This document shows, one piece after another, positions 1 through 32,000 of a stretch of 32,000 nt of DNA (its first letter is position 1; each line of letters starts with the position of its first letter). This DNA comes from Candidatus Saccharimonadota bacterium (lineage in GTDB: Bacteria; Patescibacteriota; Gracilibacteria; BD1-5; UBA6164), in NCBI GenBank assembly GCA_004563595.2, contig CP042461.1:660001-692000 (forward strand), in the 5' to 3' direction. The notes under the pieces were generated by a model. The model saw only the letters and a program-made list of their open reading frames with translations. It searched no databases and was not told the origin of the DNA. Both the position numbers and the translations under genes were made by a program.

Positions 1-1
1 A

Positions 2-235
2 AATTGAAATTTAGCGAACCTTGATCTAATTAAATTTAAAATTTCTACTGATATTAGATGACTTCTCGATACTTTTTGATGAGATTATCAAGAGGGAAAA
101 TATGATGATAGAGAAATAATTGTTGGTATTCCGGATCTTTATTCAGGTAAAACACCTATTTATTCATTATTTTTACCAATTTTATCAAAAAATGGTTTTA
201 AGATGGAGGATTTTTACTATTCTCCTACAGAATAA
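2..235 (+). CDS. C-terminal end of an unidentified protein (5' part upstream of window)
   Basis: Frame is open from the window edge to TAA 233-235 when TGA=Gly (4 in-frame TGA). A 12-bp-stem hairpin follows. No family recognised from ...IVGIPDLYSGKTPIYSLFLPILSKNGFKMEDFYYSPTE. Confidence 0.4.
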
Positions 236-258
236 GAATGTAAATATTCAAAAAAAAA

Positions 259-290
259 GAAACACTTATTAATCAATAATAAGTGTTTCT
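259..290. terminator. Hairpin between convergent genes (bidirectional terminator)
   Basis: Perfect 12-bp stem GAAACACTTATT / AATAAGTGTTTC, with an A-run before it and a T-run after it. The trhO stop codon (269-271) lies inside the hairpin. Confidence 0.55.
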
Positions 291-1354
291 TTTTGTGATA
301 TTTTATGGTTAAATGATACTCCTTCCAATTTCTCAGATAAATGCGTTCTTATTTTATTCATGATTTCATCTTTTTTCTCTGGGTGAACTTTTATATCTGC
401 CCTGAGTAATTTATAATTCATTCTATCAAAATCAGATGTTTTGATATGCCCTGTTTCCAGTGCATTATCTACACATTCTTGACTACAAAATCAGTAATGA
501 TTTTTGTATTCTTTTTCATCAGCGATAATTCTAGCATTACAATGACTATACCTACAGTTTTCACAATTATCTGTTTTTTTATCTGAAAAAATACATTCTC
601 AAATAATGGTATGAGTATTTTCATCTCATACATAGTCAGAAACTCTATCATCAAATACATATAAGTTTCCTTCCCAGTTTCCATCGTTAAATGTATTTAT
701 ATATTTAACCACTCCACCATCAAGCTGATATGTATTTTTGAGTCCTGCTTTTTGAAGCATAACCGTTGATTTCTCACATCTTATACCTCATGTACAATAT
801 GAAATAACCTTTTTATCTCAGAATTGTTTTTTGTAGTTTTCTATTTCAGTTTCTAGTTCTCTAAAATTAAGTGTATTCGCTGGAATTGCATTTTTGAAAT
901 GTCCCACTTTGTATTCATGATTATTTCTCATATCTAGTATTATATAATCATCGGTATTTCCGTTATCAATAATATCTTTAAAATCCTCGATTGACATTCT
1001 ATTCCCTGCTTCATCTATTTCTGATTTTGAATATTTTTTTCCAAGTGCTACAATTTCTTCTTTGTACTTCACGGCCATTCTTGGGAATTTATGTCCGTCT
1101 ACTTTTGAGGTTTTGATATCAAAATCTTCTGGGTTATTGAATAATGGGTGTTGATCTAAATACATTTTGTATGCTTTTAGTTGTCATTCATTACAAGTAA
1201 CAGTTGATGAGATTCCTTCTGTTCATATATAGATTCTTCATTTCATTCAGATATCTTTACAGAATTTAAGGTGATCTTCTACTTCTTTCTCTGGATTTAC
1301 TACGTCTACAAACTTATAAAAAGTTATAAGTTTAAATTGTTCTTTATATAACAT
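269..1354 (-). CDS. trhO: Rhodanese-domain tRNA uridine(34) hydroxylase TrhO (YceA/UPF0176 family), 361 aa
   Basis: 362-codon frame open with TGA=Gly, containing track fragment 818-1165. N-terminus ITFYKFVDVV...GMKGRIYIGTEGISSTV. Rhodanese active-site motif YCTGGIRCEK (first G is TGA 788-790). Cys-rich C-terminal tail. ATG 1352-1354, TAA 269-271. Confidence 0.85.
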
Positions 1355-1435
1355 ATAATATATTTCTAAATAATAACTTGCATGGTTATTGCAAAAATAT
1401 CTCTGATCCATTTGTGTGGTAGAGTGCGTGTATTA

Positions 1436-1450
1436 TAAGAATAATTCTCA
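1436..1450. promoter_or_regulatory. Candidate Fur-family 7-1-7 operator (TAAGAATAATTCTCA) in the trhO / U32 divergent intergenic region
   Basis: 14/15 identical to the core TGAGAATAATTCTCA of the palindrome at 21138-21152. Lies 82 nt from the trhO ATG and 133 nt from the U32 ATG, directly upstream of a TTGCAA (1453-1458) / TAAAAT (1475-1480) promoter-like pair. Confidence 0.45.
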
Positions 1451-1582
1451 TATTGCAAGATAGATAATAGTATATAAAATAATATTTTGATTTTAATGAA
1501 ATATTGAATACCTTGTTGTTACATTATTTTATATGTCGTAAGGCTAACTTACCCTTAGTTTTATTCACTAACCCTGTATATT

Positions 1583-2968
1583 ATGACAAAACAACTAGAA
1601 CTCCTCATGCCTGCATGAGATTTTGAGAAATTAAAATTCGCTTATGCATATGGTGCTGATGCATGTTATGTATGAGTGCCAATGTTTTCACTCAGAGCAA
1701 GAACGAATACTTTTAATATGAAAACAATCAAAGAAGCCGTAGATTATGCTCATAATTTGTGAAAAAAAATATACTTTACTGCAAATATATATGCACATAA
1801 TGTAAAAATTAAACCATTTATGGCTCAGTTTTCTAAAATGGTTGAAATGAAACCCGATGCTTTTATTATGGCTGATCCATGATTGATTAGTATAGTAAGA
1901 AAGCAATTTCCAGATGTAGAAATTCATCTCTCAGTTCAAGCAAATAATACAAACTGGGCCCAAGCTGAGTTTTGGAGTGATTTAGGAATAAAAAGAATTA
2001 TTTTAAGTAGAGAAATTTCCCTGAGAGAAATGAAGGAAATTCATGAGCATGTACCACAAATAGAATTAGAAGCTTTTGTTCACTGAGCAATTTGTATGGC
2101 TTATAGTGGGAGATGTTTAATTTCAAATTATCTCTCAAATAGAGATCCAAACCAAGGTACCTGTAGTCATTCATGTAGATGGGAATACAAAGTGTTTAAA
2201 GATGATAGATCTGAAGCAGAACTAGAAACGATTACATGAAGACCTGAAGATTATCAAGAATTAACGTGAAATTTCTATCTTGAAGAAGCTGAAAGGCCAG
2301 GTGATATTATGGAAATAGATGAAGATTCATACGGCACATACCTTATGAATTCAAGGGATTTATGTGCTATTGATTATATAGGAGAGCTAAAAGATGCTTG
2401 AATTATCAGTTTTAAAGTTGAATGAAGAAATAAAACTGTTAACTATATAGCTTCAGTTGGTCTTGCTTATAAAGAAGCTCTTGAAAAAGTCGAAGTATGA
2501 GAAAAATATGATTCTATTAAACTGAGTGAGGAGTTATTCTCTATAGCAAATAGAGGTTATATACCAGGATTTTTAGCTTGAAATCCAAATGCCAACGCAC
2601 AATTTTACGAAAGAAATGGTTGATTTCAAACAAAAGTATTTTTAGGAATACTCAGAGATTTTGATGCTGAGAATATGCTTTGTAGAGTTGAGGTGAAAAA
2701 TAATTTTAGCATATGAGATAATTTTGAAATCGTTACTCCAGATGGAATTATGAAATCGAAGATAACTCAGATTTATAGAACCAAGATTAATCACGGAGTA
2801 AAAAAATCATGAACAACTTTTATAAATAAAATCGCTTTTAATGAAGATATTTCTGAAAAAGTTGAATCAGCATATGGTTGATGATATGAAGTATGGATTA
2901 ATATGGATAAAGACTATACAGAGTTTGGTTTGATTAGAAAAATATCACCAGAAATGCAAGCAAGTTAA
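1583..2968 (+). CDS. Peptidase U32 family protein (YegQ/TrhP-like), 461 aa
   Basis: 462-codon frame open with TGA=Gly, containing track fragment 1883-2086. N-terminus LLMPAGDFEKLKFAYAYGADACYVG. U32 signature EAFVHGAICMAYSGRCLISNYLSNRDPNQGTCSHSCRW. Size resembles YegQ/TrhP-type members, but other U32 roles cannot be excluded. Confidence 0.85.
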
Positions 2969-2969
2969 A

Positions 2970-2993: not shown

Positions 2994-3017
2994 CTTTGTA
3001 TATGTTTGTAGAGAAAT

Positions 3018-3425
3018 CTATAATCTATCAGCGTTTATTAAATCCTTAAGACGAGATGATAGTATATCACTTAAATCAGATGCTATTTTTTTAGATTGCA
3101 AAACATTATTGATTTTTATTTCTATTTTTATTTTTTCATTTTCTTTGTTTTTTTGATCACATATTATTTGGATACGTGAATTGCTTCTATTATAACTGTG
3201 ATCTAGGATCCTGCTTTTATGTTTAAACGGAAGTTCAAATGTATATGCACCAGACTCATAATTTACTGTGCACTTATATCTGTCATCTGTTGAGTTATTT
3301 TCGAATCCCAACCCTAATTGCCTCTTTGCAATAAAATTTTTTTGAAATACTAAAAGTCCAGATTTGAGTACAGTGATTAATTGCTGTAACAACAAATTAT
3401 GAGCTTTTTCATCATTACTACTCAA
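3018..3425 (-). CDS. Hypothetical protein, 135 aa (atypical translation signals)
   Basis: Intact under both standard code and code 25. TTG start 3423-3425 with AGGAAGGAG 7 nt upstream, TAG stop 3018-3020, no in-frame TGA, and all 4 Gly encoded by GGN. No family recognised. Confidence 0.6.
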   Translation of the reverse strand: MSSNDEKAHNLLLQQLITVLKSGLLVFQKNFIAKRQLGLGFENNSTDDRYKCTVNYESGAYTFELPFKHKSRILDHSYNRSNSRIQIICDQKNKENEKIKIEIKINNVLQSKKIASDLSDILSSRLKDLINADRL

Positions 3426-3599
3426 GATGTAACTCCTTCCTATATTATTGTAGTTTTACGAAGTGAACACATTATACATATAAAAATCATAAATCAAGTT
3501 TTATAATCGTCAATATGATCTAGAAATAAAGATTTTATTATGTTTGTTTATGGTTATATTAGAGACTATTATAATAGTAATTATTTAAAGAATAAGAAT

Positions 3600-4757
3600 A
3601 TGAAAAACTATATATATATCATTCTCGGGGTCTCATATGTTACCTATTATTTCTTAAATCAAGAGAATTCTTATTTTTTATATATAAGAGAAAATGTTGC
3701 ATATTGAGATGTATTATTATCTTATTTTAATGCATTAGTATGATTTTTTGCAGTATTATGAACCATGAATTTGGTTAACAAAGTATTAGAAAAATTATTT
3801 ATTCGACTTTCAAAAAAAACTGAAACAGAACTTGATGATCTTGTATGAGAATTTATTATTAAGTTTATTAACCTCGCAAAATACATATTTGCACTCTATG
3901 TAGTATTCTATTTAGCAAAGACTCCTGTTTATATCGATATATTAGTGGAAAAGGCTACTTCAGTATTAATTATAATAATATTTTTATCTCTCTTTACTTC
4001 ATTTGTAAACTTAGTTTTTCAAAAAGAACTTATTCTTAAAAGTAAGTTAAAAGCTGTAAGTAGAACTCTCTTGCCTTTTATTAATAAAGTAACCGTTATT
4101 TTTATATGGATTATCTGAACTATCACTATTATATGAAACCTCTGATATGATGTATCTGCTCTTATAGCTTGAGCGTGAATAGGTTGATTAGCTGTTGCAC
4201 TTGCTGCGCAAAAGAGTTTAACAAATGTATTTGGTGCAATAACTATACTCCTTAATAAACCATTTAAGATTTGAGATTATGTTGCTATTAATTGACACTT
4301 TTGAGTTGTGAAAGAGATCTGACTCTCATACCTTACCTTAAAGGATAAAATGTGACATCAAATCATGATTCCAAATGAAACAATTATAAGTACAAGTATT
4401 GAAAACCTATCCGTAAGGGAGAATAGGAGAACTGATTTTAGTATTGGTCTTGTATATGGTACAACTCAAGCAAAAATGAAAAAATGAGTTAAAATTTTAG
4501 AAGATATACTAGAAAAGTACGTGGAAGATAAAACGGCCTCTGGATATAGAGTGAACTTTGATATGTTCTGAGACTTCTCATTGAATATTAATGCAACTTA
4601 TTTTTCTCTCCATAATAAAGTTTACAAAGATTATATTAAGCAAAAAGAAGATATAAATCTGAGCATAAAAGAACAATTTGAAAAAGCCTGACTTGATATG
4701 GCATTCCCTACTCAAGAATTAATAATAAAAAAAGAAGATAAAAAGAAAAACCTTTAA
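3600..4757 (+). CDS. mscS: Small-conductance mechanosensitive channel (MscS family), 385 aa
   Basis: 386-codon frame open with TGA=Gly. N-terminal TM helices, then ALIAGAGIGGLAVALAAQKSLTNVFGAITILLNKPFKIGDYV and a beta-domain. ATG 3600 (an in-frame ATG at 3540 is an alternative start), TAA 4755-4757. Confidence 0.85.
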
Positions 4758-4818: not shown

Positions 4819-4846
4819 AAGAAGATTTTTAATCTTCTTTTTTATG
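4819..4846. terminator. Bidirectional terminator between mscS and the RhuM-Doc gene
   Basis: AAGAAGATT-TTT-AATCTTCTT hairpin flanked by an A-run and a T-run. Overlaps the stop codon at 4842-4844. Confidence 0.65.
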
Positions 4847-5834
4847 CAATCAGGTTCATTACAAGTTTTACCATGAGTTCTTTATCTTTTGGATTACTAG
4901 ATGCAATGAGAAGCGTTATAGCTACAAGGGCTCTATCATTAATCTTTCTTTCTCAATTTTCGTCAAATAAGAGATTATTTTTTGCTAAGAAGAGAATAAA
5001 AGTAAAGGCTCAACTTCTTTTGTTTCCATCTATAAATGGATGATCTTTTACTATAAAATAAAGGAGATTTGCAGCCTTCTCTTCTGTGGTAGTATAGAGA
5101 TCAGCTCATCAAAATGTTTGATATATGTTTCAAAATATTGATTCTATTCAATATTTTTCTTTGTTTTTTGCAAATAAATCTGTTGCCTCTCATTTAGAAA
5201 CAAGGTTTTGTTTTAGCTCTAAAATAGCATTATATGCCTCCTTTGCTTCTAATTTATAATTTAAATTTTTTGTTTTTCATGTTTCTTTTAAACTACCTTC
5301 ATCATATTTTTGTAGAAGTAGCCAACTATTGGTATAGTTTGTTATGATATCTAAAAATCCTAGTGCTTCTTCTTTTCATAAATCTCATGAGATCAGGGCT
5401 TTTTTAATCATATTGATAGAACCTTCTAATTCTTTGAGACCTTTTTCCTGAATTCTTTTTTTATTGATAGTGTATCATTGAATAAGGTGATCTTTGAGAA
5501 TTTTATTTGCCCATATACGAAACGACGTTGCTTCTTTTGAATTTACTCTATATCAAACTGATAAAATCATATCGAGGTTATAAAATTTTGTTTGATATTT
5601 TTTTCCATCATTAGCAGTATGTTCCATTTTGGAACACACTGATTCAAGGGTTAATTCTTCATCTTTAATTATATTTTTAATATGTTTAGTTATCGCTGGT
5701 CTTTGTACTCAAAATAGCATAGATATATGTTCTTGAGTAAGCCATATATTTTCATTTTCAAGCTTTACCTGGATTTCAGCATCTCAATCTTTCTTTTTAA
5801 AGATATGAATGTCTCATCTTCTTATTTTAGTCAT
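4842..5834 (-). CDS. RhuM-family N-terminal domain fused to a Fic/Doc domain, 330 aa
   Basis: 331-codon frame open with TGA=Gly. RhuM-type region WLTQEHISMLFGVQRPAITKHIKNI...DGKKYQTKFYNLDMILSVGYRVNSKEATSFRIWANKIL. Fic/Doc motif HPFIDGNKRSGA at 5007-5042. Confidence 0.8.
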
Positions 5835-5947: not shown

Positions 5948-8134
5948 CTAATCTACATATACTTCTCTTGGTTTACTCCCATTGCTTGGTCAAACAACTC
6001 AAAGTTCTTCTAATATATCAAGTACTTTCGCAGCACGAGCATATCAGAGTCACAGTTTTCTTTGGATGAGAGATGTGCTTCCTTTTCATGACTCTTTTAC
6101 CACAAGGATAGCTTTTTCTATTAGCTCAGGATCTTCATCTTGATCTCATTTATAATTTTCAAGAATACTTCATTCTGTTTTAGACTTTCAATTTACAATA
6201 GATGAATCTTGAAGATTATTGAGTATATCAGGATCAATAGTAAGTTTTAATTGATTCACTACTGCTTCAACTTCATCAGTCTCCACAAGTACTCACTGTA
6301 CCCTCTCTGGTTCTAAATTCCCAGTTGGGTATGACAGCATATCTCACCTCCCTAGAAGGTCCTCAGCTCATTTTTGTCATATAATGGTTTGAGAATCAAT
6401 GTGTGATGCAACGGTAAATGCAATTCTCGATGGAATATTTGCTTTAATAAGTCATGTAATAACATCAACTGATGGTCTTTGTGTTGCAACTATCAAATGA
6501 ATTCATACAGCCCTTGCCATTTGTGCAATTCTAGAAATAGATTGTTCAACTTCTTTTTTATTTCAGCTCATCATAAGATCAGCCAACTCATCTATTACAA
6601 AAACTATATATGGTAATCTTTTATCTTTCTCTACTTTTGCGTTGTATTCTTTTAAATTTCTAGCATTTACGGCTGTCGCAAGGTCATATCTTCTAAGCAT
6701 TTCAGCTACACACCATTTTAATGCATTGAGTGCTTTATCTGGATTTGTAATAACTGGTGTAAGTAAGTGAGGAATTCCATTATATACTGAAAGTTCAACT
6801 CTTTTAGGATCCACCATTATCATTTTTAAGTCAGAAGGAGAGAATTTATAGAGAAGTGATATAAGAAAACCATTCATTCACACAGATTTTCAAGAACCTG
6901 TTTGTCATGCTATAAGAAGATGTGGCATTTTTGCAAGATCTCATACCATAATGTTTCAGCTTACGTCTTTTCACAGAGCAATTGGTATTTCTAATTTGGG
7001 AGAGTTAAATTCTTTTGATGAAAGTACTTCCCTCAGTCATACTGCTTGTCTATTATCATTTGGAACTTCTATTCAGACGGCTCAGAGTCCAGGAATTGGA
7101 GCTTGTATTCTTATGTTTTTTGCATGAAGAGCGAGGGTTAGATCTTTTTTAAGGTTTACAATTTTTTGAAGTTTTACTCATTCTCTTGGCTTCAGTCTAT
7201 ATTGTATTACAGTTGGTCAGACCCTAAATCATAACATTTCAACTTCTATTTTAAACTGGAGGAGCTTTTCTTGAATTTCTATTTCTTTTCTCCTTATTTC
7301 ATTTTTATCATAATTGATATTTTTTCCTCTTTCAGTTAAAAGGTCTAATTTTGGAAAAATCCAATTTTTAAATGTGCTTTTTCAAATAGTTTGAATTTTT
7401 TCTTCGGATTTTTTCTCTGTTTTTGAGAATAGGGCTCAAATTTTTGAAGGAGCTTTCTTTTCAATTTTAATTTTTTTTGGTGCATCAGAAAGGTTCAATT
7501 GTTTTGTTTTCTTTTCTTTACGTAAGGATTCTTTTTCCCTTTTTAACTCTTCCATCATTTCATCGAGTTCTTTCTTTTTATTATTGAGTTTCGTTTCTGA
7601 TTTGGTTCTCGGTATATTTTTGATTATTTTTTCTTTTTTAATAGTATTTTTTATATCAGAAACTGATGGACTTAAAGAAACCATTTTCTTTGTAAAATGT
7701 ATTGGTGAAAAACGAAATAATATAATAAGAGAGAGGATAAATAAACCTATAAATAGTAAAAGAAGTGAGTTTCGTCATATTATATCTACCAGGATTGGGT
7801 ATAAGTTAAATGCAGCTTGGTAATTTCATATAAAGAATCAAATTATTGTTGTGATACTAAAAAAGAAAAAAAGGAGTCAAAATCATCTATATATATTAAA
7901 ATCAAGATCTTTTTCTTTGAATAAAAATATACTCAGAAGTAATGTTACAGGCGAAAATAGAAATTGATAGTATTCTCAAAATAATATTGTAAGAATATTA
8001 AAAATATGAAATCAAACAACAGATTTTGTATCTGCTAATAAAACAAGGATCGATAAAAATAAAAATATAGTAGCAAAAATATATTTTTTTATATCTGGAT
8101 TTAGTTTTGGAACTGTTTTTTTTCTTGGTGGCAT
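5948..8134 (-). CDS. ftsK: DNA translocase FtsK/SpoIIIE, 728 aa
   Basis: 729-codon frame joining track fragments 6563-6877 and 7436-7684 through TGA codons. N-terminal TM helices. Walker A AGQTGSGKSV (TGA at 6905-6907 and 6890-6892), Walker [13 protein letters not shown]. Gamma domain [34 protein letters not shown]. Confidence 0.93.
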
Positions 8135-8651: not shown

Positions 8652-11039
8652 TTATTTAGATGTAAGGTAAATATTTGTGTTAGTATCCAATATATTGGCT
8701 ATCATAAATGCTCACTCTCATCTGGTTACTTTTAGATTAGGTCTGAAATAATTCTCTCAGAACTTATCTTTCCACGTAGTATTACTTAATACATAGCTGG
8801 CTTTTTTGTTATTTAAACTATCTAAATCTTTATATTTCTTGGTAATTACTTTATTATTATTTAATACAAGATATTTATAATTCAGATCTAAAAAATCTTG
8901 TCTTGTAATAGATCTAAATCTACTTGCGCTTAATTTCTCTGCTTTTAAATCACTTAGTTTTTTATTAATAATGTTTACTGTAGATCAAGAAACTGAACTA
9001 TCTTTTATTTTAATTAAACTATTTTCGATCCAATTCAGCGCATCGACTTCCACAAGTTCCCTGCTTTCTAGAAAATATCATTTATTAATTCAATCTACAA
9101 TTCAATTTTCTAACATTTTCACTACGTCATTTTTATAAGCGTAATTACTTTTTAATCATTTAGGATTCGTTACGCTGAGCGTTTTTGAGCTCATATTTTT
9201 ATTTCCATAATCATTAATAATAGTAATTTTCGCATCTTTAGAGATGGCTTTATAATCAAATATAAGTAATCCTCATACTGTATCAGTATAATCAAAATCT
9301 ATTGTATCAGTATAATCTGAATCATTACAAGATTTTTTATATATCTGTCTAATATTTTTTAATGATCATCTTTTTATACAAACTTCTACTCAATCAGTGG
9401 TTTTAAGTTTGAAACTAGATCAATATTTAAGATTTATTAATTTTCTTCAATTTTTATCTTTAAAAAGTGCTATACCAGTTTTTTTATCTCAAAGGACAAT
9501 ATTTCTACTTGAATATATTTTTGCGGTATTAGGATACACAACATTTCATGCTGCATAAACTTGTAAAGGTATAGATTTGACAGTTGATTGTCATATTTTT
9601 ATAAAAAGAGTAGTATTTCATGTTTTTAACCCTGAAAGTTTTATATCTCTTTTTCAATCAGTAAAATTATATAGCTTCTGTGGAAAGACGCTTACTTTTG
9701 TAGTATCAACTATAAATGTCATACCAGCAGGCATATTTCACTTAAATGGTCTTCACCTTTTATCAGTAACTTTTAATTTAACGGTTGTGGTTTTTCATGA
9801 CTCTATATTTCATCATATATTATTGAGCTTAAATTCAATATTATATTTTCTTATAAATTCTTTTGCTTCTTTTTCTTCAATTTCTTCTCTTGTCATTAAG
9901 TTCGCTTTTGATATTTTCTCAGTTTTTATACTACTCGTAGCTATAGTTGATGATATTTTTGTTTTTCAACCACTCGCTAAGAAGTTTGTATAATCATTTT
10001 TAACTTGTTTTCTCGTTTTAGGTCAAAACCAACCAGCTCATAAATCAGTTTTATTTTTTATAATATTATTAGAAATCTGGTATGCTATCATACTTTTTTC
10101 TATATCTTTATAATCTCAATTTATAGATCAGTTATATTCTCATAGATCTCTAAAGATTTGTTGAACTTCTTTAATATCTGAACTAGAATATCAGATATAT
10201 ACTGTTTTCGTAAATATTGATAAATCTACAGTTGAGTTATTAGTAGGAGTCTGAGTTGATGATTGAGAACTTGTTTTTACTATTTTTATACTATCTAATA
10301 TTCATCCATTTGTTTCTAAAAATAACAGAGGATCGATAGTGTTTACTTGTAATTCATCAAAACAAACTCATGTCTCAGTTATTTTATAATAACTATAAGG
10401 ACATTTAGAATAAGCATAATAATATGGGTGAAAAGGGGTATCTAAATCAATTTGAAAATGGAGATGATTTCATGTAGAATTTCATGTAGATCATACTTCT
10501 CATACTTTCATTCAGACACTGATCTTTTGTCCTTTTCTCACATTAATCTTTGACATATGTGAGTAATTTGAAACAATTACTTTTCCTTTTATTGTATGTT
10601 TCACTGATACAGTGTTTCATAATCATACTGTATTTTTTGCTAGTATTACTTCTCAGTTTGCAATACTATAAATTGGTGTTCATTTAGAAGTGGCAATATC
10701 AGTTCAGATATGACCTCCATTTCATACATCCCATCAATATTTATAACTTGCTCCCCATAATTCTGTATAAATTCTTGTATATTGATTATAACCACCATCT
10801 TCATTGGCATATTTTTTATAATCTTTTGTTTTTAAAACTGGTAAATTTTGTTTACAATCTGAAGTTAATTCAGAAAATTCTTTAAACCTACATTCTAATT
10901 TCGATATTTCCTTTAATGGATATATAATTTTGTCATTGCTCGCAGCAAGTGTAGTCGGTATCGGTATAATATTTGTTACAATAAAAATTCCGAGTAATCC
11001 TGTTTGACAAAACTTTGTTAAACTTTTTTTCATTTTCAT
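8652..11039 (-). CDS. Secreted M23 (LytM-type) metallopeptidase with peptidoglycan-binding-like and SLH-like repeats, 795 aa
   Basis: 796-codon frame extending track fragment 10734-11039. Signal peptide. M23 motifs GHIGTDIA and HLHFQI. PG-binding-like DIKEVQQIFRDLGEYNGSINGDY...GWFGPKTR. C-terminal SLH-like repeats ending FGENYFRPNLKVTRGEGAFMIANIL. TAA 8652-8654. Confidence 0.85.
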
Positions 11040-12085: not shown

Positions 12086-12653
12086 TAAATGACCTCTCGT
12101 AATGAGTGTATCAAATATACTTATATGAGTATCATTTATATGTACTCTTTGAGCATCAATATTCCCTGTTTTATATTTGTTTTGATTCAATGATATATTT
12201 CTAACTCGTTGAGATTATCATATATATATTATACAGTTTTTTACGTCGACCTTCTTACATGCATGATTTTTCCATTTTATTGCAAATGCTCTGTTTTTAT
12301 ATATTTTTTGAAATGTAGTGGAACTTTTGATATGAAAGAAAAAATATATAGGATTTTTTATATTTGCTATCTTTTTTATATGAAGTTGACTTACTTTTAT
12401 AAATGCAGGAAATACCGTATGAATTAGTTGATTTTGTATGGCTCTATTAAGTTATTATACACTTGAGCTTAAATCGCAAAACAATGTTGACTATAAGTGA
12501 TGAATCACAGCAATAATACTTAATATAGCTATTTGACTCCATCCTTGAATTAGTCTTTTTTGACATTTATTTTGAGTTATTGGATGAATACTATTCTATA
12601 TCTTTAATAAAACATTCTTTAAAAATATTCTTCTTTGAATTAAAAATTCTTAA
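12072..12653 (+). CDS. Rhomboid family intramembrane serine protease, 193 aa
   Basis: Invisible in the standard-code track because it has 20 in-frame TGA. Motifs FLHAGFFHFIANALFLYIFGNVVELLIG, GISGFCMALL (GxSG, catalytic Ser) and GHLFGVIGGILF (catalytic His). ATG 12072 overlaps lgt by 14 nt, and ATG 12102 is an alternative start. TAA 12651-12653. Confidence 0.8.
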
Positions 12654-20730: not shown

Positions 20731-21075
20731 TTACCCGAATTCTCATATAAGTTTTATATCCATTGAATTAATTTTAAAATTTTTTGGCAAATTTGGAATA
20801 TTAATATCTTTTAAATCAAGATCAAATATTTCTCAAGTTTTTTCATCAATTATATGAATATGATCTCATATATTTGTTTCAAAATATGTTTTTTTTCAGA
20901 CTCAGATAAGTTTTTTTAATAATCATTTTTTTGATAATTCTTCAACATTTCTATATATAGAAGACTTCCCTGCTTCAGGATAATCTTTTATAAGCTCATT
21001 ATATATATCATCAACAACTAAGTGTTTATGGCTACATATTTCTATAATTTTATCTGAGTAATAATGAGTTTTCAT
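20731..21075 (-). CDS. Fur-family-like transcriptional regulator (short, lacking CxxC), 114 aa
   Basis: 115-codon frame. Winged-helix-like DDIYNELIKDYPEAGKSSIYRNVEELSKKGLLKKL, then GDHIHIIDEKTGEIFDL. No CxxC zinc motifs. Divergent from the peroxiredoxin gene across a 7-1-7 palindrome. Confidence 0.6.
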
Positions 21076-21125
21076 AAGTGTTCATATTAATAATACTTTA
21101 TAAGAATATGGATTTTGATTCATCT

Positions 21126-21232: not shown

Positions 21233-21844
21233 ATGGAAGATTTTAACATACCTACAATAGTAAAAATTGATAATGAAGCTCCTAGTTTTGACCTTCCTTA
21301 TTACGATCCAAAAACTGATACAGATGGTAAATTAGCTTTATCTGACTTACAATGAAAATGGTCAGTATTATTCTTTTATCCAGCAGACTTTACATTTGTA
21401 TGTCCTACTGAATTAAAAGATATGGCAGATGCTAAGCCTCATTTTGATAAAATGTGAGTAGAAATACTTGCTGTGTCTACAGATACTATTTTTTCTCATA
21501 GAGCATGGGTAAAAAGTGAAAAACTAATGGAAGATTTCCCATATAAAATGCTTGCTGATCATGGTCTAGAGACATCTGATATCTATAATATCCTTGATGA
21601 TGAATCTGGTATTGCAGGAAGAGGAACGTTTATCATTGATCCAGATGGAGTTGTAAGAACTATTGAAGTTGCTTCAGGTCCACTTGGAAGAAATAGTGAT
21701 GAACTTATCAGAAAACTCCAAGCTCTTCAATTTATGAGAGAAAATCCAACAGCAGCTTGTCCTGCTAAATGGGCTCCATGAGCTAAAACACTTACTCCAT
21801 CAATTAAACTTACAGGTAAGGTGTATGAAGCGTTACAAGACTAA
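21233..21844 (+). CDS. Typical 2-Cys peroxiredoxin (AhpC/Prx1 type), 203 aa
   Basis: 204-codon frame containing track fragment 21473-21781. Peroxidatic site [15 protein letters not shown] and resolving Cys in [10 protein letters not shown]. Only 3 of 12 Gly codons are TGA. Confidence 0.92.
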
Positions 21845-21858: not shown

Positions 21859-21889
21859 AAAAAAGACATCAATCGGATGTCTTTTTTTT
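21859..21889. terminator. Bidirectional terminator between prx and holA
   Basis: AAAAGACATC-loop-GATGTCTTTTTTTT. The holA stop codon (21888-21890) abuts the T-run. Confidence 0.65.
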
Positions 21890-22829
21890 ATATTAACTTC
21901 AATATACACTTCTCTATCTCCAACTTCAAATCACTATCCTCTGATCAGATTAGTTTTCAAGATTTCATTTTTTTATCGAGACTTATAAGATCTAGATAAA
22001 AATTAGAGAGTTTTTTGTGAGAAATCTTATAATTCTTAGTAATGAGAAAACCTCTATTTCATAAACTAAGAGTTGAGTTAATTTCTTGAGTTGAGAGTTT
22101 TAAGCTCTTGAGTGTAAATATATAAATACTGGTCCTTAAGTTCGCAAGCAGATTATTATAAAAGGCATAACTATTAGTATTATTTAGGATAATATCAATA
22201 GTTTTTAATGCTGCTGGAATGTTTAGGTTTAAAAGATTATCAATAAGTTGAAAAATACTTTCTTCGAGCTCTGGTATTACAATTTCAGTAATGTCATTTT
22301 TTATAATAGAAGTTCTAGTGATAAAAATCTTATCTAATTCAGATATAATTTTTGAAAGGTTTCATGATTTATATTTAATAATTTCATATATAGCATCAGT
22401 TTCAATACTATTTCAATACTTCTTTTGAATAATAATTTTGATATCATTATCATCATTTGTATTAAATTCTTTTATTTCTGATATTTTGTTAATTCATTTA
22501 TAAATTTTAGATCTTTTATCAGGATTTAGTGAAATAAAAACAAGAATATTTTCTTCTGGTACATTCTCAGTGAGAGTTAATATAAATTCATGTTTATCTT
22601 GTATCTTAGAGTCTTTTGTTGCGAAGTCTAAGTCTATAACTATCAGTTTCTTTGCTGCTAAAAAACCTCATGAAGTGAGAGTAGAATTTAAGAAATTATT
22701 ATCACAATCTAGGAGTGATTTAATGTGTAAAAAATTAAATTCTCAGTGCTTTTCTATAAAGTGGTTTTTCCATACTGAGAGTTGATTTTTTATCAGATAA
22801 TCAGAATTTCATGTAAAATGATAGATCAT
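21888..22829 (-). CDS. holA: DNA polymerase III delta subunit, 313 aa
   Basis: 314-codon frame. Delta-subunit pattern: MIYHFTGNSDYL, FLAAKKLIVIDL, LEESIFQLIDNLL and a C-terminal LDKKMKSGK. No Walker A motif. Assignment is by pattern only. Confidence 0.65.
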
Positions 22830-22835: not shown

Positions 22836-24029
22836 TTAATTATTGATAATTGCTTTGAGTATATCACTTCCCTCTTTATTAATCTCTTCATATACTTCCT
22901 GAATAGAAAGAAGTGATTTTTTTAAGTTTAAGAGATCTCTTGGATTTGCTCTATTTAAAGCAAGCCTATTTAATATAGAATCAATATCAGATACAAATCA
23001 AAGCTTAATTCTTACTGTATCTAATAGTATTTTATTATTATAAAACTCCTGAATAAATTCTTGTCTTTTTTCTATTTCTTCAATGGATTGAAGAGGCTTT
23101 ATTATATTTTCTTTTAAAATCCTCGTTCACCCAGATGATTTAGTTTTATTTAAAACTCAAAATAATGTTCATTGTGTTCAAGATTTTGTTGAAACATTAT
23201 AAAGTAAATCTAGGTTTCTCATTGTAGATTCATCAATGTTCATATATTCTCAGTAATTGAGAGCTCAAATGCTATTCAGGAATGTAAGTGACGATTTTTG
23301 ATTCATTTCAAGGTAGTCAAGAAGCAACGCTGCTGCTGATATTCATAATATTAACGAATCGATTCAATATCATTCAAGGCTTTTTACTCAAAAATGTTTT
23401 AATAATTTTTCTTTTGGTTTTGATGGAGTTTGATGGTAAAAAATATTCAATGAATATTTTTTTTCTAATATATTTTTTATAGCATCATGAGAAAAAAGTC
23501 TTTTTTCTAATATAACTTCTTTTGGAGAAATTTTATATATTTCATTTTTTAATCATTCAAAGTCATGAAATTCTCATGTTTTCCATATATGTGAATCAAT
23601 ATCTAGGTAACTCAAAGCAAATATTTCTTTATTTTCTACAATTGTGAGAATAATATTAGAAGAATTTGTTCCTGCAAATTCTTCTCATTCTAAGTCTAGA
23701 GTAGCAGGAGTTACCACTCTAATAATCTCTCTTTTTACTATTCATTTTAATTTTGGATCTGAAACTTGTTCAGCTATTGCTACTTTATATCATGCGTTCA
23801 CCAAAATTGGGAGATACTTCTGTTTTGCATGATATGGAATTCATGCCAGAGGAGTTGGAATCTCTGCATTTTTATTCCTGGTTGTTACAGATATTCATAG
23901 TACTTTATGAGCTATATGAGCATCATCATCAAACATTTCATAGAAATCCCCCATTCTAAAAAACAAGATTGCATCAGGGCATTCTTCTTTTAGGTCATAG
24001 TATTGTTGCATTGCTGGTGTGATAGTCAT
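22836..24029 (-). CDS. mutS: MutS N-terminal fragment (mismatch-binding, connector and part of core domain only), 397 aa; possible pseudogene
   Basis: 398-codon frame. [51 protein letters not shown]...IPYHA...GYKVAIAEQ...[24 protein letters not shown], then TAA 22836-22838. The holA ATG follows 6 nt later. Clamp, Walker A and ATPase parts are absent. Confidence 0.8.
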
Positions 24030-24037: not shown

Positions 24038-25252
24038 TTAAAACATAAATTTATTTTTACATATTCTTGAATATTTCTTATCTTTTTCAATATACCTAGA
24101 TATATTGAGAAGAATTCATAATGCTATAATAAGTGATAAAAGTGAACTTCATCAATAACTAATAAATGGGAGAGTAATTCAAGTCAGAGGAACAATATTT
24201 AAATTCACTCAAATATTTATGAATGCTTGAATCATTATCCATGAAGAAATTCAAACTGCGACATATTTTCCAAATAAATCTGATACTTTTGATGCAATAT
24301 AGAGTCACCTATATCAAATATGAAGATAAAAAGATAACAGAATAAATCAACCTAAAAATCATAATTCTTCTATAATTACTGAAAAAATAAAATCTCACTG
24401 TACTTCTGGTAAATATCAGTATTTTTGAATTGACTTACCAAATCATAAACCATTGAATCATCAACTTCCTATAGCTATTAGAGCTTGCTCTGTTTGATAA
24501 TTAATAGTTTTATTTTTAATAGCCTCTTTATTATCACTTAAGAAGTTATCAATTCTATTTGTTATATAACTCAGCTTGTTTGCTGTCTCAGGATTAGACT
24601 TATCATACTTACCTCACATATAAACAGAAGTAGATAAAACTACTCACAAAATGAATAATATTCATAAGTACTTTATGTTTGCTCATGCATAAAAAAACAT
24701 AATAACAGAAATAGGGACAATTACCATTATAGTTCAGAAATCAGGCTGTAATCATACAAGAAATAATGCTGATCATAATATGAGCATAAAAGGGATGAAG
24801 CCATCAGAAAAAGAATGAAGATGATTCTTATACTTCTTTAAAAATGCTGCTAAATAAAGAATCAAAGTAATTTTTAAAAATTCTGTTGGTTGGATAGCAA
24901 ATGGTAAAAATGGGAGATTAATCCATCACCTAGCACCATTCCAACTTGGTCAAATCAGAAGTACTACAAGCAATAATATAAGACTAAATATGAAAAAATA
25001 CTTTGCGTATTTTTCAAAAAAAGAATAATGAATTTTGACTATTACTCAGAGTCATAATAGAGCGACAATTACATGGATGATATTTCTAATAACGTAAAAA
25101 TGATTATATCATTCAGCAATAAATCATGCTTTTACCATAAGACTTGTTACCCTAAAAGATGAGTATACTGATACAGAAGATATCATTATCATTCAGAATA
25201 TTATTAAAAACAGGACTGTAAAAAAAAGCCTATAATCAACATTTTTTTTCAT
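24038..25252 (-). CDS. ftsW: SEDS family peptidoglycan polymerase FtsW/RodA, 404 aa
   Basis: 405-codon frame. Motifs [43 protein letters not shown] and [15 protein letters not shown]. FtsW cannot be distinguished from RodA from the sequence alone. Confidence 0.88.
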
Positions 25253-25263: not shown

Positions 25264-25551
25264 TTAATTAAGTAATTGGATAACTTCTATTTTTAGCTCT
25301 GGAAACAATAAGAATAGAATTCAACGAACAAATGCTAAAATTAAGATTACTACAATCGGAGTAAAGTCTATTGGTCAAATGGTAGTAGGTATTATTTTTT
25401 TTATATTTTCGTAAAGAGGATCAATAATGTATGCGAGAAACTTTGGTCTTAATTTAAGTCAAAATACTGTAAGCCAAGATAGAATAACATCAGCAAATAC
25501 AATATATTGTATTATTTCTAAAAAAATTATTATTGTAAGTAATATGGTCAT
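25264..25551 (-). CDS. yggT: YggT family membrane protein, 95 aa
   Basis: 96-codon frame with two TM helices. FADVILSWL...IDPLYENIKKIIP...GPIDFTPIVVIL. Its ATG lies 2 nt after the rnc stop. Confidence 0.7.
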
Positions 25552-25553: not shown

Positions 25554-26273
25554 TTATATATTAATTTTATTAAATCAGTTCAATGCTGCATGTTCTTGAG
25601 CTTTTTTCTTACTTGAACCATTTCCTTGTCCAATGATTTTTTCTCATAAATATACTCAAACTTCAAAATCTTTATCATGATCTGGTCATGACTCAGAGAT
25701 AATTTTATAAGTTGGTGTAACATCAAATTTTCACTGCGCTAACTCTTGAATCAAAGTTTTATAATCTTTTGTAAGATTATTATGAAGTATATCCTCTAGG
25801 GTAATATAAATATGTTTGTCCACGAAGCTTGTAGAGATTTCGATTCACCCATCCAAGTATATCGCTCATAATAGAGCTTCTACTACATTTGCAAGCAGAT
25901 AATTATTTTCTCTTCAACCTCATAATTCTTCTCATTTTCATAAAATTAAAAAATCATGTAATCAGAGAGTCTTTGCTATTTTTGCTAGATTTGTTCACCT
26001 TACAAGAGCACTACGAATATCAGTGAGGTCTCACTCGGGTTTATCAGGGAAGTCATTGAATAAATTTTTTGTAATAATTAATTCAAGAACAGCATCTCAT
26101 AAAAACTCTAATCTTTCATTATGTACCGGTGCATAATCAGGTCTTTCGTTTACAATCGATCTATGGATAAATGCTTGAATATAAGGGGATATATTATTAT
26201 ATTTTATATTTAATGAATCTAATAATTTTGATATTTTTGCAATTAAAATTTCATTTTCAACTGCCTTTTTCAT
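25554..26273 (-). CDS. rnc: Ribonuclease III, 239 aa
   Basis: Extends track fragment 26097-26282. Signature HNERLEFLGDAVLEL (the G is TGA 26097-26099). C-terminal dsRBD GPDHDKDFEVGVYLGEKIIGQGNGSSKKKAQEHAA. ATG 26271-26273 is preferred over TTG 26280-26282. Confidence 0.92.
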
Positions 26274-26343: not shown

Positions 26344-26373
26344 AAAAAATCTCTTGTTTTAAGAGATTTTTTT
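26344..26373 (-). terminator. Intrinsic terminator at the end of nusB
   Basis: 12-bp stem AAAAAATCTCTT / AAGAGATTTTTT with a 5-nt loop. The nusB stop codon (26359-26361) lies inside it. Confidence 0.6.
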
Positions 26374-26835
26374 GAAAACAGAAAGTGTTGTATTTGAAAA
26401 ATCAGTTTTTGCTAATTCTGTGAGCTCTTCTACGTCTGTTAAGACCTTGTTTAATACTCAATTAACTATTTTTTTTGCTGAGTCATCTCAGTAGTTTTTT
26501 GCTACTTCAATTGCTTCATTCACAGATATTTTAGCTGGTATTTCTTCTTTCAAAAAAAACATTTCTGCAAGACAAAGAAATACTGGTAAAATATACATAG
26601 GATTCATAGTTTTGATATCAAATCTTGGAGAGTATTTTTTTAAGACTTCTATAAAAAAACCTTCATGTTTTTTGATAACATCAATCATTTCAATACTATA
26701 TTCTGTATCTATATCAAAACGAAATGTATTCTCATAAAAAGATTTTGTAAATAATTCCTCATTATATTCAGCAAATGTCATTGCATAGAGTTTTTGAAAA
26801 AGAAATTTCCTGGTTTTTTTACGATTTACTTGCAT
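26359..26835 (-). CDS. nusB: Transcription antitermination factor NusB, 158 aa
   Basis: Track fragment 26488-26835 extended through 2 TGA to TAA 26359-26361. RKKTRKFLFQKLYA ... EAIEVAKNYGDDSAKKIVNGVLNKV. Confidence 0.8.
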
Positions 26836-27258: not shown

Positions 27259-27927
27259 ATGCAAAAAATTTTAATTGTAGAAGATGATAAATGAATCTCT
27301 CATTCATTAAAACTCTATTTAGAAAATTCAAATTTTGAAGTCCATCTTTATTATGAATGACTTGGTGCATTGGAAGAAATAGCGAAAATTAAGCCAGATT
27401 TACTAATACTAGATATTAATTTACCTGGAAAAAATGGTATTGAGATTGCAAAAGAAATACGTATAAACTCCAGTTTACCTATTGTTATCCTTACAGCCAG
27501 ATGAAGTGAATTAGATAGGATTACATGACTTGAAATCTGAGCTGATGACTATATAGCAAAACCATTCTCTCCACGAGAATTGCTTGCAAGAATCAACACT
27601 ATACTGAGAAGAATAAAAGTTGATCATAATTCAGATTGAAACACTATTAGCTATTGAAATGTATTTATTGATATAGATAAAAAAATAGTAAAATTAAATA
27701 ATATACTCATTTCGCTTACTTGAAATGAGTTTGATATCTTAAAAAAAATTGTAGAAGAAAACTGAAAATTAGTGAAAAGAGAAACTCTGATGACTGAAGC
27801 AATTTGATACGATAAATATATTTACGATAGAACGATAGATACACATATAAAAAATCTCAGAAAAAAACTTTGAAATAAAGACCTTATACTTACGGTAAGA
27901 TGAGAATGATATAGATTAAATAAATAA
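27259..27927 (+). CDS. OmpR/PhoB-family response regulator, 222 aa
   Basis: 223-codon frame. Receiver domain ILIVEDD...[13 protein letters not shown]...AKPF. Winged-helix output [13 protein letters not shown]...[13 protein letters not shown]...TVRGEGYRL. Confidence 0.9.
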
Positions 27928-27946: not shown

Positions 27947-29254
27947 GTGTCACTATCAAAAAAATTCATTATTTCCCTTGTTATAAGCATATTTTTTATA
28001 GCTTTTATAAATATAATTGCTTTTTATGTCTTTTATAGTTCATACTTAAAAGTGTACTTAGTAGAAAAAATTAAATCTAGAGATACCATTACTATAGAAT
28101 ATATAAACAAAGTTATTCAGAAGCAAACTATTGATGAAATTGATAGTATTTTTACTGATACTGAAATAGAATTTTTTGAACTCTTAGAAAAAGAAAATTG
28201 AAAAATTTCCTTGAGTCAGGACAAAAATATTAATATAGTTATTAATTATTTAATAAAAAGCTGAATAACACCTAAATATATTGAAGAATTAGTTCCTACA
28301 GATAACTTTTGAAAAGTAATTGAAGCGATAAAAGATAAAGAATCTCCTGAATATCGTTTTGTAAATAAACTTACTATATCAATTATAATAACTAATATTC
28401 TTGCAATTGGGATTACTATCACTTCTATGTTGATTTTTATTAATAAGGCTATATTACCTATAAAACAAGCTACAGCCACTATCAAAAAGAGTAAGCCATG
28501 AAAAGAATATAAAGAAATTGACTACCATAATAAAAAAGATGAAATTTGACTCCTAATAACTGCCATCAACTCTCTTAATAAAAAATTAAACCTACAAGAA
28601 ACAATCAAAAATCGACTCTTAGCCGATATATCTCATGAGTTAAAAACTCCAATTACATCTATTCAATGTTATCTAGAGTGAATATCAGATTGAGTTATTA
28701 AACTTGATCAAAAAAACTTAAATGCCATTACGGATGAAATGAAGCGACTCATATTACTCGTAAATAGGATTATGGATTATGAAAAATCCGAACGTGTACA
28801 ACTAAAGTTAGAATTTATACCTGAAAATCTCAGTGAACTTATCAAACTGGTAGTTGAAACACATAAGAAAAAATTAAAAGAGAATAAACAACGTATCAAA
28901 GTTACATGAGATGAGAACCTTATGTTAGAGATCGATAAAGATTTAATTAAGCAACTTACACATAATCTTATTTGAAATTTCCTGAAATACGCTTGAAGAA
29001 AGAAGATATTAAAAATTAATATAACAAAAAACTATATAGATTTTACTGATGATTGAGTTTGAATAAAAATGAGTGAGATTCCATTTTTAACAGAAAAATT
29101 TTATCAAGGTAATATTGAAAAAACTTGAGATATTGATACCAGATGAATCTGAGTTTGATTAAGTATTACCAGAAGAATTATTGAATCGCATTGATGGAGG
29201 TTTGAAATAAAATCAGATTTAAATAAAGGGTTTAGCTTTAAAATATACATATAA
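27947..29254 (+). CDS. Sensor histidine kinase, 435 aa
   Basis: GTG start at 27947. Track fragment 27947-28201 extended to TAA 29252-29254. Two TM segments. H-box LLADISHELKTPIT. ATPase boxes HNLIGNFLKYA, DDGVGI and GIGVGLSI. Confidence 0.88.
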
Positions 29255-29401
29255 TTTCATCTTCACACAATATTCACATTAAAAATTTTTATATATTAAA
29301 TACTCAAGTATACTCAGTATACGAATTAGGGAATCATAATTAGGTTAAAGCCAAAAAAACTTAACATGTATTCTCTAGTTTTTTACGTATAAACTCATAT
29401 T

Positions 29402-30214
29402 ATGAAAAAAATCATAATCTCTATAATCTTCTTATTCTTAATTAATATACCATACTCAGTATGAGTGTATTCTTTTTCGTGAGTAATATCTAGCTCTAGC
29501 TGAACTATAAAAGAGATAAAAGAAAAACTATACGACCTTCAAAACAATCAAAGAGATCTAAAAATAGAATCTAAATCACTCTATCAAGATCAGCGTCTTA
29601 GGACATTTTTTAGAGACAATTTAAGACGCTCTGAAATAAAGAGTATTGAATTCATTATTAATAATTATACATATAAAAAAAATACAACGAATAAAGTCTT
29701 ACTAGAAAAAGCTGCAAATTTAGAAGATGTAACAAATGAAAAAAAAAGCTTATTAGATCAAAAAAAAGAACTATATATTAGGATGACCCCATATATTAAG
29801 ACATCTGAAATGTCTCGATATCTAGAATATATTAAGAATGATGCAAAAATATTAAAAGAAAGTAAAGATATCAGAACTGAGATTATAGTTAATAATGAAA
29901 TACTCTCCACAAAAGTATCTATTATAGAAAAAAGGATTGAAGAACATAGAAATATATTAAACGGAGCATTAAAAATAATTGTAAAACAAAAAATAGAACA
30001 AAAAATCAACAATCTTGAAAATAATGAAAAATTTAAGGCATTAAGAAATGAATTAAAATTAAAAGTTATTGAAAAAACTATAGTAAAAGTAAGAATTTTA
30101 AGCTCAAATTTAGAAAATGACACTGATAAGTCAGATATTATTATTAAAAAGTTAGAAATATATAACTTGCTTCTTACTGAACTAGAAGCATTTAAAGAAA
30201 GGTTAACACAATAA
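29402..30214 (+). CDS. Secreted coiled-coil protein, 270 aa (hypothetical)
   Basis: ATG 29402 extends track fragment 29783-30214 upstream through TGA codons. Signal peptide MKKIIISIIFLFLINIPYSVG. The remainder is K/E/N/I-rich and heptad-like. No family recognised. Confidence 0.6.
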
Positions 30215-30248
30215 AAAAACTCTGAATATACCATCTCAGAGTTTTTTT
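30213..30248. terminator. Bidirectional terminator between the coiled-coil ORF and wecB
   Basis: AAAAAAACTCTGA-loop-TCAGAGTTTTTTT. Confidence 0.65.
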
Positions 30249-30250
30249 AT

Positions 30251-31624
30251 TTAATTTATTTTCCAGTTAAAGTATTTTTCAAGTCATAATCTTTCGTCAT
30301 CAAATTTGAATAACTTTCAATCTCTCTTGAGCATTTTCAATACTTCATCTACAATTTTTTCAGAGACATTCTCTCAGTATAGACTTTTTCAAATCATTTT
30401 TTTATTTCAAATTGCTCATTTAACAATATCTACTATAAGATTTGAGTTTATAGGTGGTGCAATGACGTTATTTCAAGCTAGAATTGTCTCAGTTCTATCA
30501 GAACCAAATCTAACAGTAACACATGGTACTCATACTATATTTGCTTCTTCTTGCATACTCCCACTGTCGGTTACAACAGCTCAAGCTTGAGATATCATAT
30601 CAATCACTTCTGCATGATGAGCTAATGCTGGACCATAAGCAAAATTCTCAGCATACTTCTCTTTGAGTGAATCAATATCTTCTCTGAGTCAGTACTTATC
30701 AATTGCAAATTCCGAAGCATATAACCCTAAAAAACATACATAAACTCAATCTTCAATTAATTTTTTTATCGCATTGTATATTACAAGAAATCTTTCTTTC
30801 TTTTCTGTATTCTCTCTTCTATGGATAGTAATGAATAAGAAGTCTTTTCACTTCATATTTGGGTATTTTTCAAATGCTTTTGAATCTTTTACTTTCAATT
30901 TTGAAATCTCAATAGCATCAGCAACTGTATTCCCTACTACTTTTATATGATCAATAGGGAATCATTCATCAATCAAAGTCTTTTTATATAAGTCTACTGG
31001 TGCTGCAAACAATCATGTAGATCATTCAATTCATCTCGTATCAAACTGTTCAGGATATGGCTCTATACTCCCCCTTTCATATATATTAAAATCTTGTAAT
31101 TTTTTGTAATATGAGTCCCAATTAAATTTTCAAGATTCATAATCATTAAAAAGCTTTTCATAAAAAATTTTTGTTGGAGTAAATGTCCTAATTCATGCTT
31201 CTACATGTACCACTGCAAACTTATTCAAAAAAGCAGCTTTATCGGCTGTTGTCGCTGTCATAGTATCACCATGAACATATGGAACAGGAATTTTTTTATA
31301 ATTCTCAGCTAAATCTATAAGAATATCTCATAACCTCTCTATTACTAGAGAGAATTTTTTATGAATTTTTCAATATATATTTAAATTCATATCAACATCC
31401 ATTCAAAATTCTGTTAAGACTCATTTGCTTAAGTTGTAATCATAGTGTTGTCCTGTATGAATAAGAATTACTAACTCTCCCCTCTTTTTTAACTCTTGAT
31501 AAAGTGGTGCTTGTTTAATAATATCAGGTTTTGTTGCTATCATTATAATATGGGCATATTTTTTTTCTGATTTTTCAATATCTTGCCAAAAATTTTCTCT
31601 AACGAATACTTTATTATCTTCCAT
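30251..31624 (-). CDS. wecB: UDP-N-acetylglucosamine 2-epimerase (non-hydrolysing type) with internal insertion, 457 aa
   Basis: Track fragment 31421-31624 extended through TGA codons to TAA 30251-30253. IMIATKPDIIKQAPL, HTGQHYD, VHGDTMTA, HVEAGIRT ... PYPEQFDTR, ITIHRRENT, TDSGSMQEEA. Confidence 0.82.
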
Positions 31625-31691
31625 ATCAGTAATTATAAATTAATTTGAAATATTTTAACTGAAAAAGAAAATATGTAAAAAATAAAAATAA

Positions 31692-32000
31692 TTAAGTTTT
31701 AAATATCATTCAAACAATTATACAAATAGATACTAAAAGAGTCACTATAATATCTCTATTACCAGGTTTATCTCATAAAATAAAGAATCAAAAAAGATAA
31801 ACAAATCATAGATATAGCAGGCTGAGTAAACTCGTAGCAACTAATCATAATCATGTGTACAATGTAAAAATTAGGATAATACTTGTGAGGCCTATTATGT
31901 TTGTAAGAACAAGAAGTTTAGAATATTTTTTTGTTAATAATTTGAATTGATGAAACTCTGATTTAGTTACTAGTAGTAGTCATGCAAATATAAGAATTAC
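31692..32000 (-). CDS. C-terminal part of a polytopic membrane protein (possibly EamA/DMT-type); N-terminus outside window
   Basis: Frame is open from the window edge to TAA 31692-31694 with TGA=Gly. Three hydrophobic helices and FFILGDKPG. Family assignment is tentative. Confidence 0.4.

Follow-up and report, generated by a model that had tools for sequence, protein, structure and literature searches.

The 32,000-nucleotide stretch of DNA analysed here (the window) raises the question of how the codon UGA is read by the organism it comes from. The window appears to derive from the chromosome of Candidatus (Ca.) Gracilibacteria bacterium 28_42_T64, a member of BD1-5 in the Candidate Phyla Radiation (CPR). 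When TGA was translated as glycine, the prolipoprotein diacylglyceryl transferase Lgt was identical to the NCBI Lgt of this organism (P0001), and five further translations were exact copies of GenBank entries from its 1,343,103-bp contig: QFR39228.1 (RNase III), QFR39231.1 (response regulator), QFR39229.1 (NusB), QFR39221.1 (pyruvate kinase) and QFR39225.1 (a short MutS). A preliminary description, made from the letters of the window, had pointed to a code known from Gracilibacteria and SR1/Absconditabacteria, and these identities place the window in Gracilibacteria. From the evidence presented below we conclude, with near certainty, that in 28_42_T64 UGA encodes glycine, UGG encodes tryptophan, and UAA and UAG are the only stop codons (translation table 25).

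The use of UGA for glycine in Gracilibacteria and SR1 was described in 2013. The closed 1.343-Mb Gracilibacterium genome (28.87% GC, 42x coverage) was reported by Sieber et al. 2019 (mBio, PMC6851277), who used code 25 for gene prediction in 28_42_T64 and found prfA, whereas prfB was undetected in it and in all other BD1-5 genomes. For the validation of UGA=Gly by proteomics in BD1-5 these authors refer to Hanke et al. 2014 (PMC4032931), and UGA=Gly was recovered in 13 of 15 Gracilibacteria species by Shulgina and Eddy 2021 (PMC8629427). The reassignment is thus already known for the clade and for exactly the 28_42_T64 genome, and there is nothing scientifically new in it.

TGA as a sense codon

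Under the standard bacterial code (table 11), the 32 kb held only 10 open reading frames (ORFs) of at least 100 amino acids (aa), and the longest stop-to-stop frame was 237 aa. With TAA and TAG as the sole stops, the longest frame was 1070 aa and long frames tiled the window, as expected from the earlier proposal that TGA is a sense codon. Readings in which one of the other two stop codons is sense were rejected: with TAG as sense the longest frame stayed at 237 aa, and with TAA as sense it reached only 456 aa. Since TAA and TAG together account for ~7% of codons off-frame, the probability that a 1070-codon frame lacks both by chance is ~1e-34.

The final set with TGA as sense comprised 26 complete genes and one partial frame, with a coding density of 91.8% (Table 1). 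The 27-gene set contains 449 in-frame TGA codons and no in-frame TAA or TAG, and the complete genes end with TAA (24) or TAG (2), none with TGA. Pfam families were matched over their full model length, with dozens of TGA codons in between, and the matches reached the C-terminal ends of the models right before a TAA or TAG. TGA is read through in every gene, and UAA and UAG are still stop codons.

The default ORF track of the window lists 30 ORFs with a minimum length of 60 aa. Independent classification divided them into 13 in-frame gene fragments and 17 artefacts, exactly the split given in the preliminary description. The six TGA codons quoted there were also all found at the coordinates, on the strands and in the motifs described. 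On the minus strand these are 26097-26099 in ERLEFLxD of RNase III, 788-790 in CTxGIRCEK of the TrhO-like rhodanese, and 6905-6907 together with 6890-6892 in AxQTGSxKS of FtsK; on the plus strand they are 19484-19486 in DTKxPEIR of pyruvate kinase and 18096-18098 in AAKTxTS, the KTG motif of the penicillin-binding protein (x, TGA codon).

Exact look-ups of the table-11 NusB fragment and of P0001 in the contig index gave no match, and an exact 40-mer was absent from the GTDB species representatives. The closest of these representatives is L001, an uncultured Ca. Gracilibacteria metagenome-assembled genome (MAG), with a pyruvate kinase 64% identical in the best segment of the scan. L001 has the same TGA-sense ORF pattern as the window and shares with it the gene order FtsK, M23, Lgt, rhomboid, LytR-CpsA-Psr, PBP1, pyruvate kinase, Fur, AhpC, HolA, MutS-N, FtsW, Rnc, NusB, response regulator and histidine kinase, with protein identities to the window orthologs of 55-77%.

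Short, fragmented table-11 ORFs would also be expected if the standard code applied and TGA were a stop, the locus being a pseudogene graveyard, an assembly or sequencing artefact, or a case of selenocysteine insertion or readthrough. We consider the probability of this explanation negligible. It would have to reconcile 449 in-frame TGA codons with the complete lack of in-frame TAA and TAG over 27 frames, and with full-length Pfam matches that span dozens of TGA codons. Selenocysteine is unable to explain 4.7% of codons. The sequence itself was recovered independently, the Logan assembly of run SRR3580189 being 100% identical to window positions 16359-32000 (15.6 kb), and L001, an independent MAG, keeps both the pattern and the gene order, TGA being either retained or replaced by GGN. 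Control loci of other phyla, from Kiritimatiellia, Eubacteriales, Bacteroidia and a Mollicutes bacterium, gave normal table-11 ORFs.

Phages with recoded stop codons exist, and one window gene codes for a RhuM domain and a Fic domain, both frequently associated with phages or islands; the window might therefore be part of such a phage or of another mobile element rather than of a cellular chromosome. Its content is, however, that of core housekeeping (ftsK, ftsW, class A penicillin-binding protein, lgt, pyruvate kinase, rnc, nusB, rpmF and holA), its proteins are GenBank entries of a 1.34-Mb chromosome, and its gene order is kept in the second Gracilibacteria genome. A mobile origin is so improbable that it can practically be set aside.

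The amino acid at TGA

A plainly sense TGA is also what translation table 4, with UGA=Trp, would produce, and the assignment has to be decided on the identity of the amino acid. Codon composition already separates the two readings. GGN codons alone make up 1.9% of codons, whereas GGN and TGA together give 6.6%, a normal glycine content; TGG and TGA together would raise tryptophan to 5.1%. Read as glycine, TGA supplies ~70% of the glycine codons (445/632), beside 44 in-frame TGG codons in the 27-gene set.

Ten window proteins were each translated with TGA as glycine and as tryptophan and scored against Pfam. The glycine version scored higher in 21 of 21 domain matches, with totals of ~2830 versus ~2243 bits; for the LGT family the scores were 188.4 and 116.4, respectively. 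The preliminary description had suggested a comparison of this kind, and it came out for glycine over the table-4 translation in every match. Next, the 68 TGA codons in Lgt, FtsW and RNase III were translated as every one of the 20 amino acids in turn, and the FTSW, LGT, Ribonucleas_3_3 and dsrm scores were summed. Glycine gave 654.2 bits, 85 bits ahead of alanine (569.5), which was followed by serine (563.9), threonine (555.2), asparagine (546.0) and cysteine (539.8). The other amino acids gave 461.8-531.6 bits, and tryptophan, with 447.6 bits, was the lowest of the 20. Glycine was also the best residue in each family, for dsrm marginally (54.8 versus 54.2 for glutamine).

In the structure test, queries with masked TGA codons were aligned with structures from standard-code organisms for five families, namely Plasmodium pyruvate kinase, Pseudomonas aeruginosa FtsW and FtsK, Escherichia coli Lgt and human Drosha. 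The TGA positions faced glycine in 67 of 112 cases (60%) and tryptophan in none, while canonical GGN codons faced glycine in 21 of 34 (62%), indicating that TGA is as conserved a glycine as GGN. TGG codons, in a small sample, faced tryptophan in three of six cases and glycine in none. Glycine was found opposite 16 of 23 TGA codons of Lgt (E. coli Lgt, 5azb), 14 of 20 of pyruvate kinase (tryptophan 0/20) and 15 of 27 of FtsW, and both Walker A TGA codons of FtsK face glycine in the P. aeruginosa protein (2iut). For RNase III the count was 5 of 15, with the TGA of the signature motif opposite a glycine of Drosha; this figure is conservative, because the alignments counted were with human Drosha, bacterial structures having ranked lower.

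The comparison of codons between the window and L001 needs no protein database. The 297 window TGA codons stand opposite TGA (135), GGN (95) and, once, TGG. In the other direction, 35 of 104 window GGN codons stand opposite TGA in L001, and the 25 window TGG codons stand opposite TGG in 22 cases and opposite TGA or GGN in none. Judged from these alignments, UGA behaves in evolution as a synonym of GGN and not of UGG. The conservation of TGG also agrees with the earlier view that it still encodes tryptophan, and the tryptophan of the CRWEY motif in the U32 protein is indeed encoded by TGG; a search of the PDB with the U32 protein gave no match, so this residue has no structural counterpart to compare with. 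Taken together, three independent lines, the Pfam substitutions, the structures and the ortholog codons, uphold glycine, and not tryptophan, as the meaning of TGA.

A reading between the two, in which UGA is mostly glycine and at some sites a stop or partly tryptophan through U34 wobble, has a basis in that a U34 tRNA could in principle also read UGG (Shulgina and Eddy, PMC8629427). Nevertheless, TGA is not required as a stop in any of the 26 complete genes, TGA and TGG are interchanged in 1 of 297 ortholog positions and in 0 of 25 in reverse, and prfB is reported absent (PMC6851277). We therefore regard ambiguity as very improbable, although slightly less so than a full assignment to tryptophan.

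Several points limit the evidence for glycine. About 40% of the TGA positions face a residue other than glycine in distant homologs, as do 38% of the GGN positions. No tRNA gene was found in the window, in L001 or in L007 (a Logan contig with a 3-kb extension); the absence of prfB in this organism is taken from the published report (PMC6851277), and neither prfA nor prfB lies in the window. Finally, in 120 Lgt homologs from a large metagenome-derived database (P0002-P0120), the columns at TGA hold tryptophan 1643 times and glycine 855 times. The tabulation of residues aligned with TGA that the preliminary description proposed pointed to glycine with the standard-code structures, but misleads with this database. 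There is, however, no direct evidence against table 25.

The tryptophan excess was rejected as evidence for UGA=Trp. The Lgt homologs tabulated are all of the same clade, and the tryptophan residues at TGA columns are products of table-4 gene calling, because the tryptophan-rich proteins consist of 11-12% tryptophan. The same is seen for the window itself, whose copies in JGI, ENA and Logan are translated with tryptophan: the NusB copy (P0124) matches the GenBank protein except for W in place of G at its two TGA codons, and the pyruvate kinase copies contain 4.3% W and 1.8% G. With tryptophan at none of the 112 positions in PDB homologs and the worst of the 20 substitutions in Pfam, table 4 is extremely improbable as the code of this organism.

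The JGI/IMG, ENA and Logan protein sets contain tryptophan versions both of genes from the window (P0124, P0126-P0128) and of most homologs from Gracilibacteria, and among close homologs the table-4 versions outnumber the correct table-25 ones. The choice of table has practical consequences. Annotation with table 11 leaves only 13 fragments of genes at the locus, along with 17 spurious ORFs, and annotation with table 4 turns each TGA glycine, ~70% of the glycines here, into tryptophan. Homology checks of the residues at TGA are misleading unless they are limited to standard-code organisms.

Decoding and the CGN codons

UGA is recognised by release factor 2 (RF2). Following the literature, RF2 would have been lost in this lineage, termination at UAA and UAG would be carried out by RF1, and UGA would be decoded by a dedicated tRNA-Gly with the anticodon UCA. 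This corresponds to the expected decoder, tRNA-UCA-Gly (PMC8629427). The GC content of the window is ~27% (25-30% per 2-kb bin), and once the reassignment was fixed, such strong AT pressure may have favoured TGA over GGN; the ~70% share of TGA among glycine codons would then be due to AT mutational pressure. No Rfam family was found in the window.

We also asked whether there is a second REASSIGNMENT and checked the CGN codons, since some Gracilibacteria have been predicted to use CGG=Trp (PMC8629427) and in Absconditabacteria both CGA and CGG are predicted to have changed to Trp in addition to UGA=Gly (PMC8629427). CGA, with seven codons, acts as arginine: it stands opposite AGA, CGT and AGG in L001 and is found on a conserved arginine. 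CGG does not occur in frame in ~9,650 window codons, compared with 12 and 13 occurrences in the two off-frames of the coding strands (25 in total). The sole in-frame CGG of the L001 orthologs, in the M23 gene (within 1200-3668), stands opposite a window TGG in LGAG[W]FGPKTR, which agrees with the CGG=Trp prediction for some Gracilibacteria but is a single case. The lack of CGG looks like a general loss of CGN codons, because CGC (1 in frame, 15 and 27 off-frame) and CGA (7 in frame, 50 and 44 off-frame) are similarly avoided. A second change at CGG in this lineage, which would be unassigned or Trp, seems unlikely, and the absence of CGG is more probably due to plain codon loss under AT pressure.

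Gene content and relation to known codes

The genes of the window are listed in Table 1.

Table 1. Genes and frames of the window translated with TGA as sense; paired values are Pfam scores in bits with TGA as Gly and as Trp
Feature	Coordinates	Strand	Length (aa)	In-frame TGA	Basis and remarks
trhO/yceA-like rhodanese gene	269..1411	-	380	9	Pfam UPF0176_N, Rhodanese, Rhodanese_C, all higher with Gly
Peptidase U32 family gene	1583..2968	+	461	16	Pfam Peptidase_U32, 276.4 vs 248.1
Putative hypothetical gene	3018..3455	-	135, from TTG	0	Stop-to-stop frame; no family match
MscS-type mechanosensitive channel	3540..4757	+	405	18	Pfam MS_channel_1st, MS_channel_2nd, MS_channel_3rd
RhuM/Fic-domain protein	4842..5834	-	330	15	Pfam Virulence_RhuM, Fic
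ftsK, DNA translocase	5948..8134	-	728	36	Pfam FtsK_alpha, FtsK_SpoIIIE, FtsK_gamma; TAG stop
Secreted M23 peptidase-domain protein	8652..11039	-	795	44	Pfam Peptidase_M23; ortholog in L001
lgt, prolipoprotein diacylglyceryl transferase	11327..12085	+	252	24	Identical to NCBI Lgt of 28_42_T64
Rhomboid-family protease	12072..12653	+	193	20	Pfam Rhomboid
Type IV pilin-like protein	13130..14413	-	427	22	Pfam N_methyl and Fibrinogen_C, both weak
LytR-CpsA-Psr family protein	14600..16036	+	478	24	Pfam LytR_cpsA_psr, LytR_C
Class A penicillin-binding protein	16068..19268	+	1066	49	Pfam Transgly, 175 vs 146.6; Transpeptidase, 101.3 vs 50.1
Pyruvate kinase	19280..20704	+	474	20	QFR39221.1
Fur-family regulator	20731..21123	-	130	7	Pfam FUR; length from L007 gene call
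AhpC/peroxiredoxin	21233..21844	+	203	3	Pfam AhpC-TSA
holA, DNA polymerase III delta subunit-like	21888..22829	-	313	9	Pfam DNA_pol3_delta_C
Short MutS-like gene	22836..24029	-	397	18	Pfam MutS_I, MutS_II, MutS_III; QFR39225.1 ('hypothetical protein')
ftsW/rodA, SEDS glycosyltransferase	24038..25252	-	404	29	Pfam FTSW_RODA_SPOVE, 308.8 vs 231.8
YggT-family small membrane protein	25264..25551	-	95	3	L007 gene call and Pfam family, mapped to the window
rnc, ribonuclease III	25554..26273	-	239	15	QFR39228.1; Pfam Ribonucleas_3_3, 112.9 vs 78.7
nusB	26359..26835	-	158	2	QFR39229.1
rpmF, ribosomal protein L32	26913..27119	-	68	1	L007 gene call; weak Pfam Ribosomal_L32p match; TAG stop
OmpR-type response regulator	27259..27927	+	222	13	QFR39231.1; Pfam Response_reg, Trans_reg_C
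Sensor histidine kinase	27947..29254	+	435	17	Pfam HisKA, HATPase_c; GTG start; length from L007 gene call
Lys/Glu-rich hypothetical secreted protein	29402..30214	+	270	3	L007 gene call on this strand; no Pfam match
UDP-N-acetylglucosamine 2-epimerase-like gene	30251..31624	-	457	22	Pfam Epimerase_2, 164.1 vs 141.4
Putative membrane-protein frame, 3' part	31692..32000	-		7	Stop-free frame, start beyond the window; no Pfam match

The short MutS-like gene encodes domains I-III only, without the clamp and ATPase domains, and is directly followed by holA. L001 carries the same short form at 14952-16166, 60% identical and with the holA neighbour kept, which makes it a maintained feature of the lineage and not a pseudogene or an assembly break. 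The type IV pilin-like protein unites an N-terminal methylation motif with a short fibrinogen C-terminal/fibrillar-collagen C segment (Pfam E-values ~1e-7 and 5e-4), which is an unusual pairing; in L001 it has only a weakly similar protein at another position (28% over the N-terminal 190 aa). RhuM/Fic-domain proteins such as the one encoded here are characteristic of mobile or toxin-antitoxin-like modules; its gene lies between the MscS gene and ftsK, outside the region of overlap with L001.

The genes for YggT and L32 are below the 100-aa cut-off of the scan and were recovered only from the genes called on the Logan contig; they fill apparent intergenic gaps, and rpmF is the sole ribosomal-protein gene of the window. 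Between ftsK and the M23 gene (8135-8651), two small antisense frames overlap (8200-8619, plus strand; 8283-8624, minus strand); the minus-strand frame, the sole one of the pair that was scanned, had no family match. The 476 bp at 12654-13129 contained no convincing ORF and no Rfam match. The antisense frame 29665-30246 on the minus strand was taken as an artefact; the gene call in L007 is on the opposite strand. At the end of the window, the putative minus-strand frame 31692-32000 conflicts with a different ORF (31897-32316, plus strand) called on the Logan contig.

Compared with known systems, the window is an instance of table 25, the code of SR1 and Gracilibacteria, and shows no difference in kind: UGA is glycine, UGG is tryptophan, UAA and UAG are stops, the GC content is low, and the lineage is Gracilibacteria of the CPR. 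What can be added is that TGA is here the dominant glycine codon. With the 28_42_T64 genome, the window shares six identical glycine-translated proteins and a similar GC content (28.87% for the genome versus ~27% for the window), and no differences were found. Table 4 is used by Mycoplasmatales, Entomoplasmatales and several insect endosymbionts. It resembles the present case in the codon reassigned, in the AT-rich genome and in the loss of RF2; the amino acid in the window is nevertheless glycine and not tryptophan, yet table 4 is what many metagenome pipelines used for the sequences considered here. The code of the Absconditabacteria, a sister clade, likewise has UGA=Gly, and CGN codons are rare in the window too, but CGA is arginine here and CGG is absent from the coding frames of the window.

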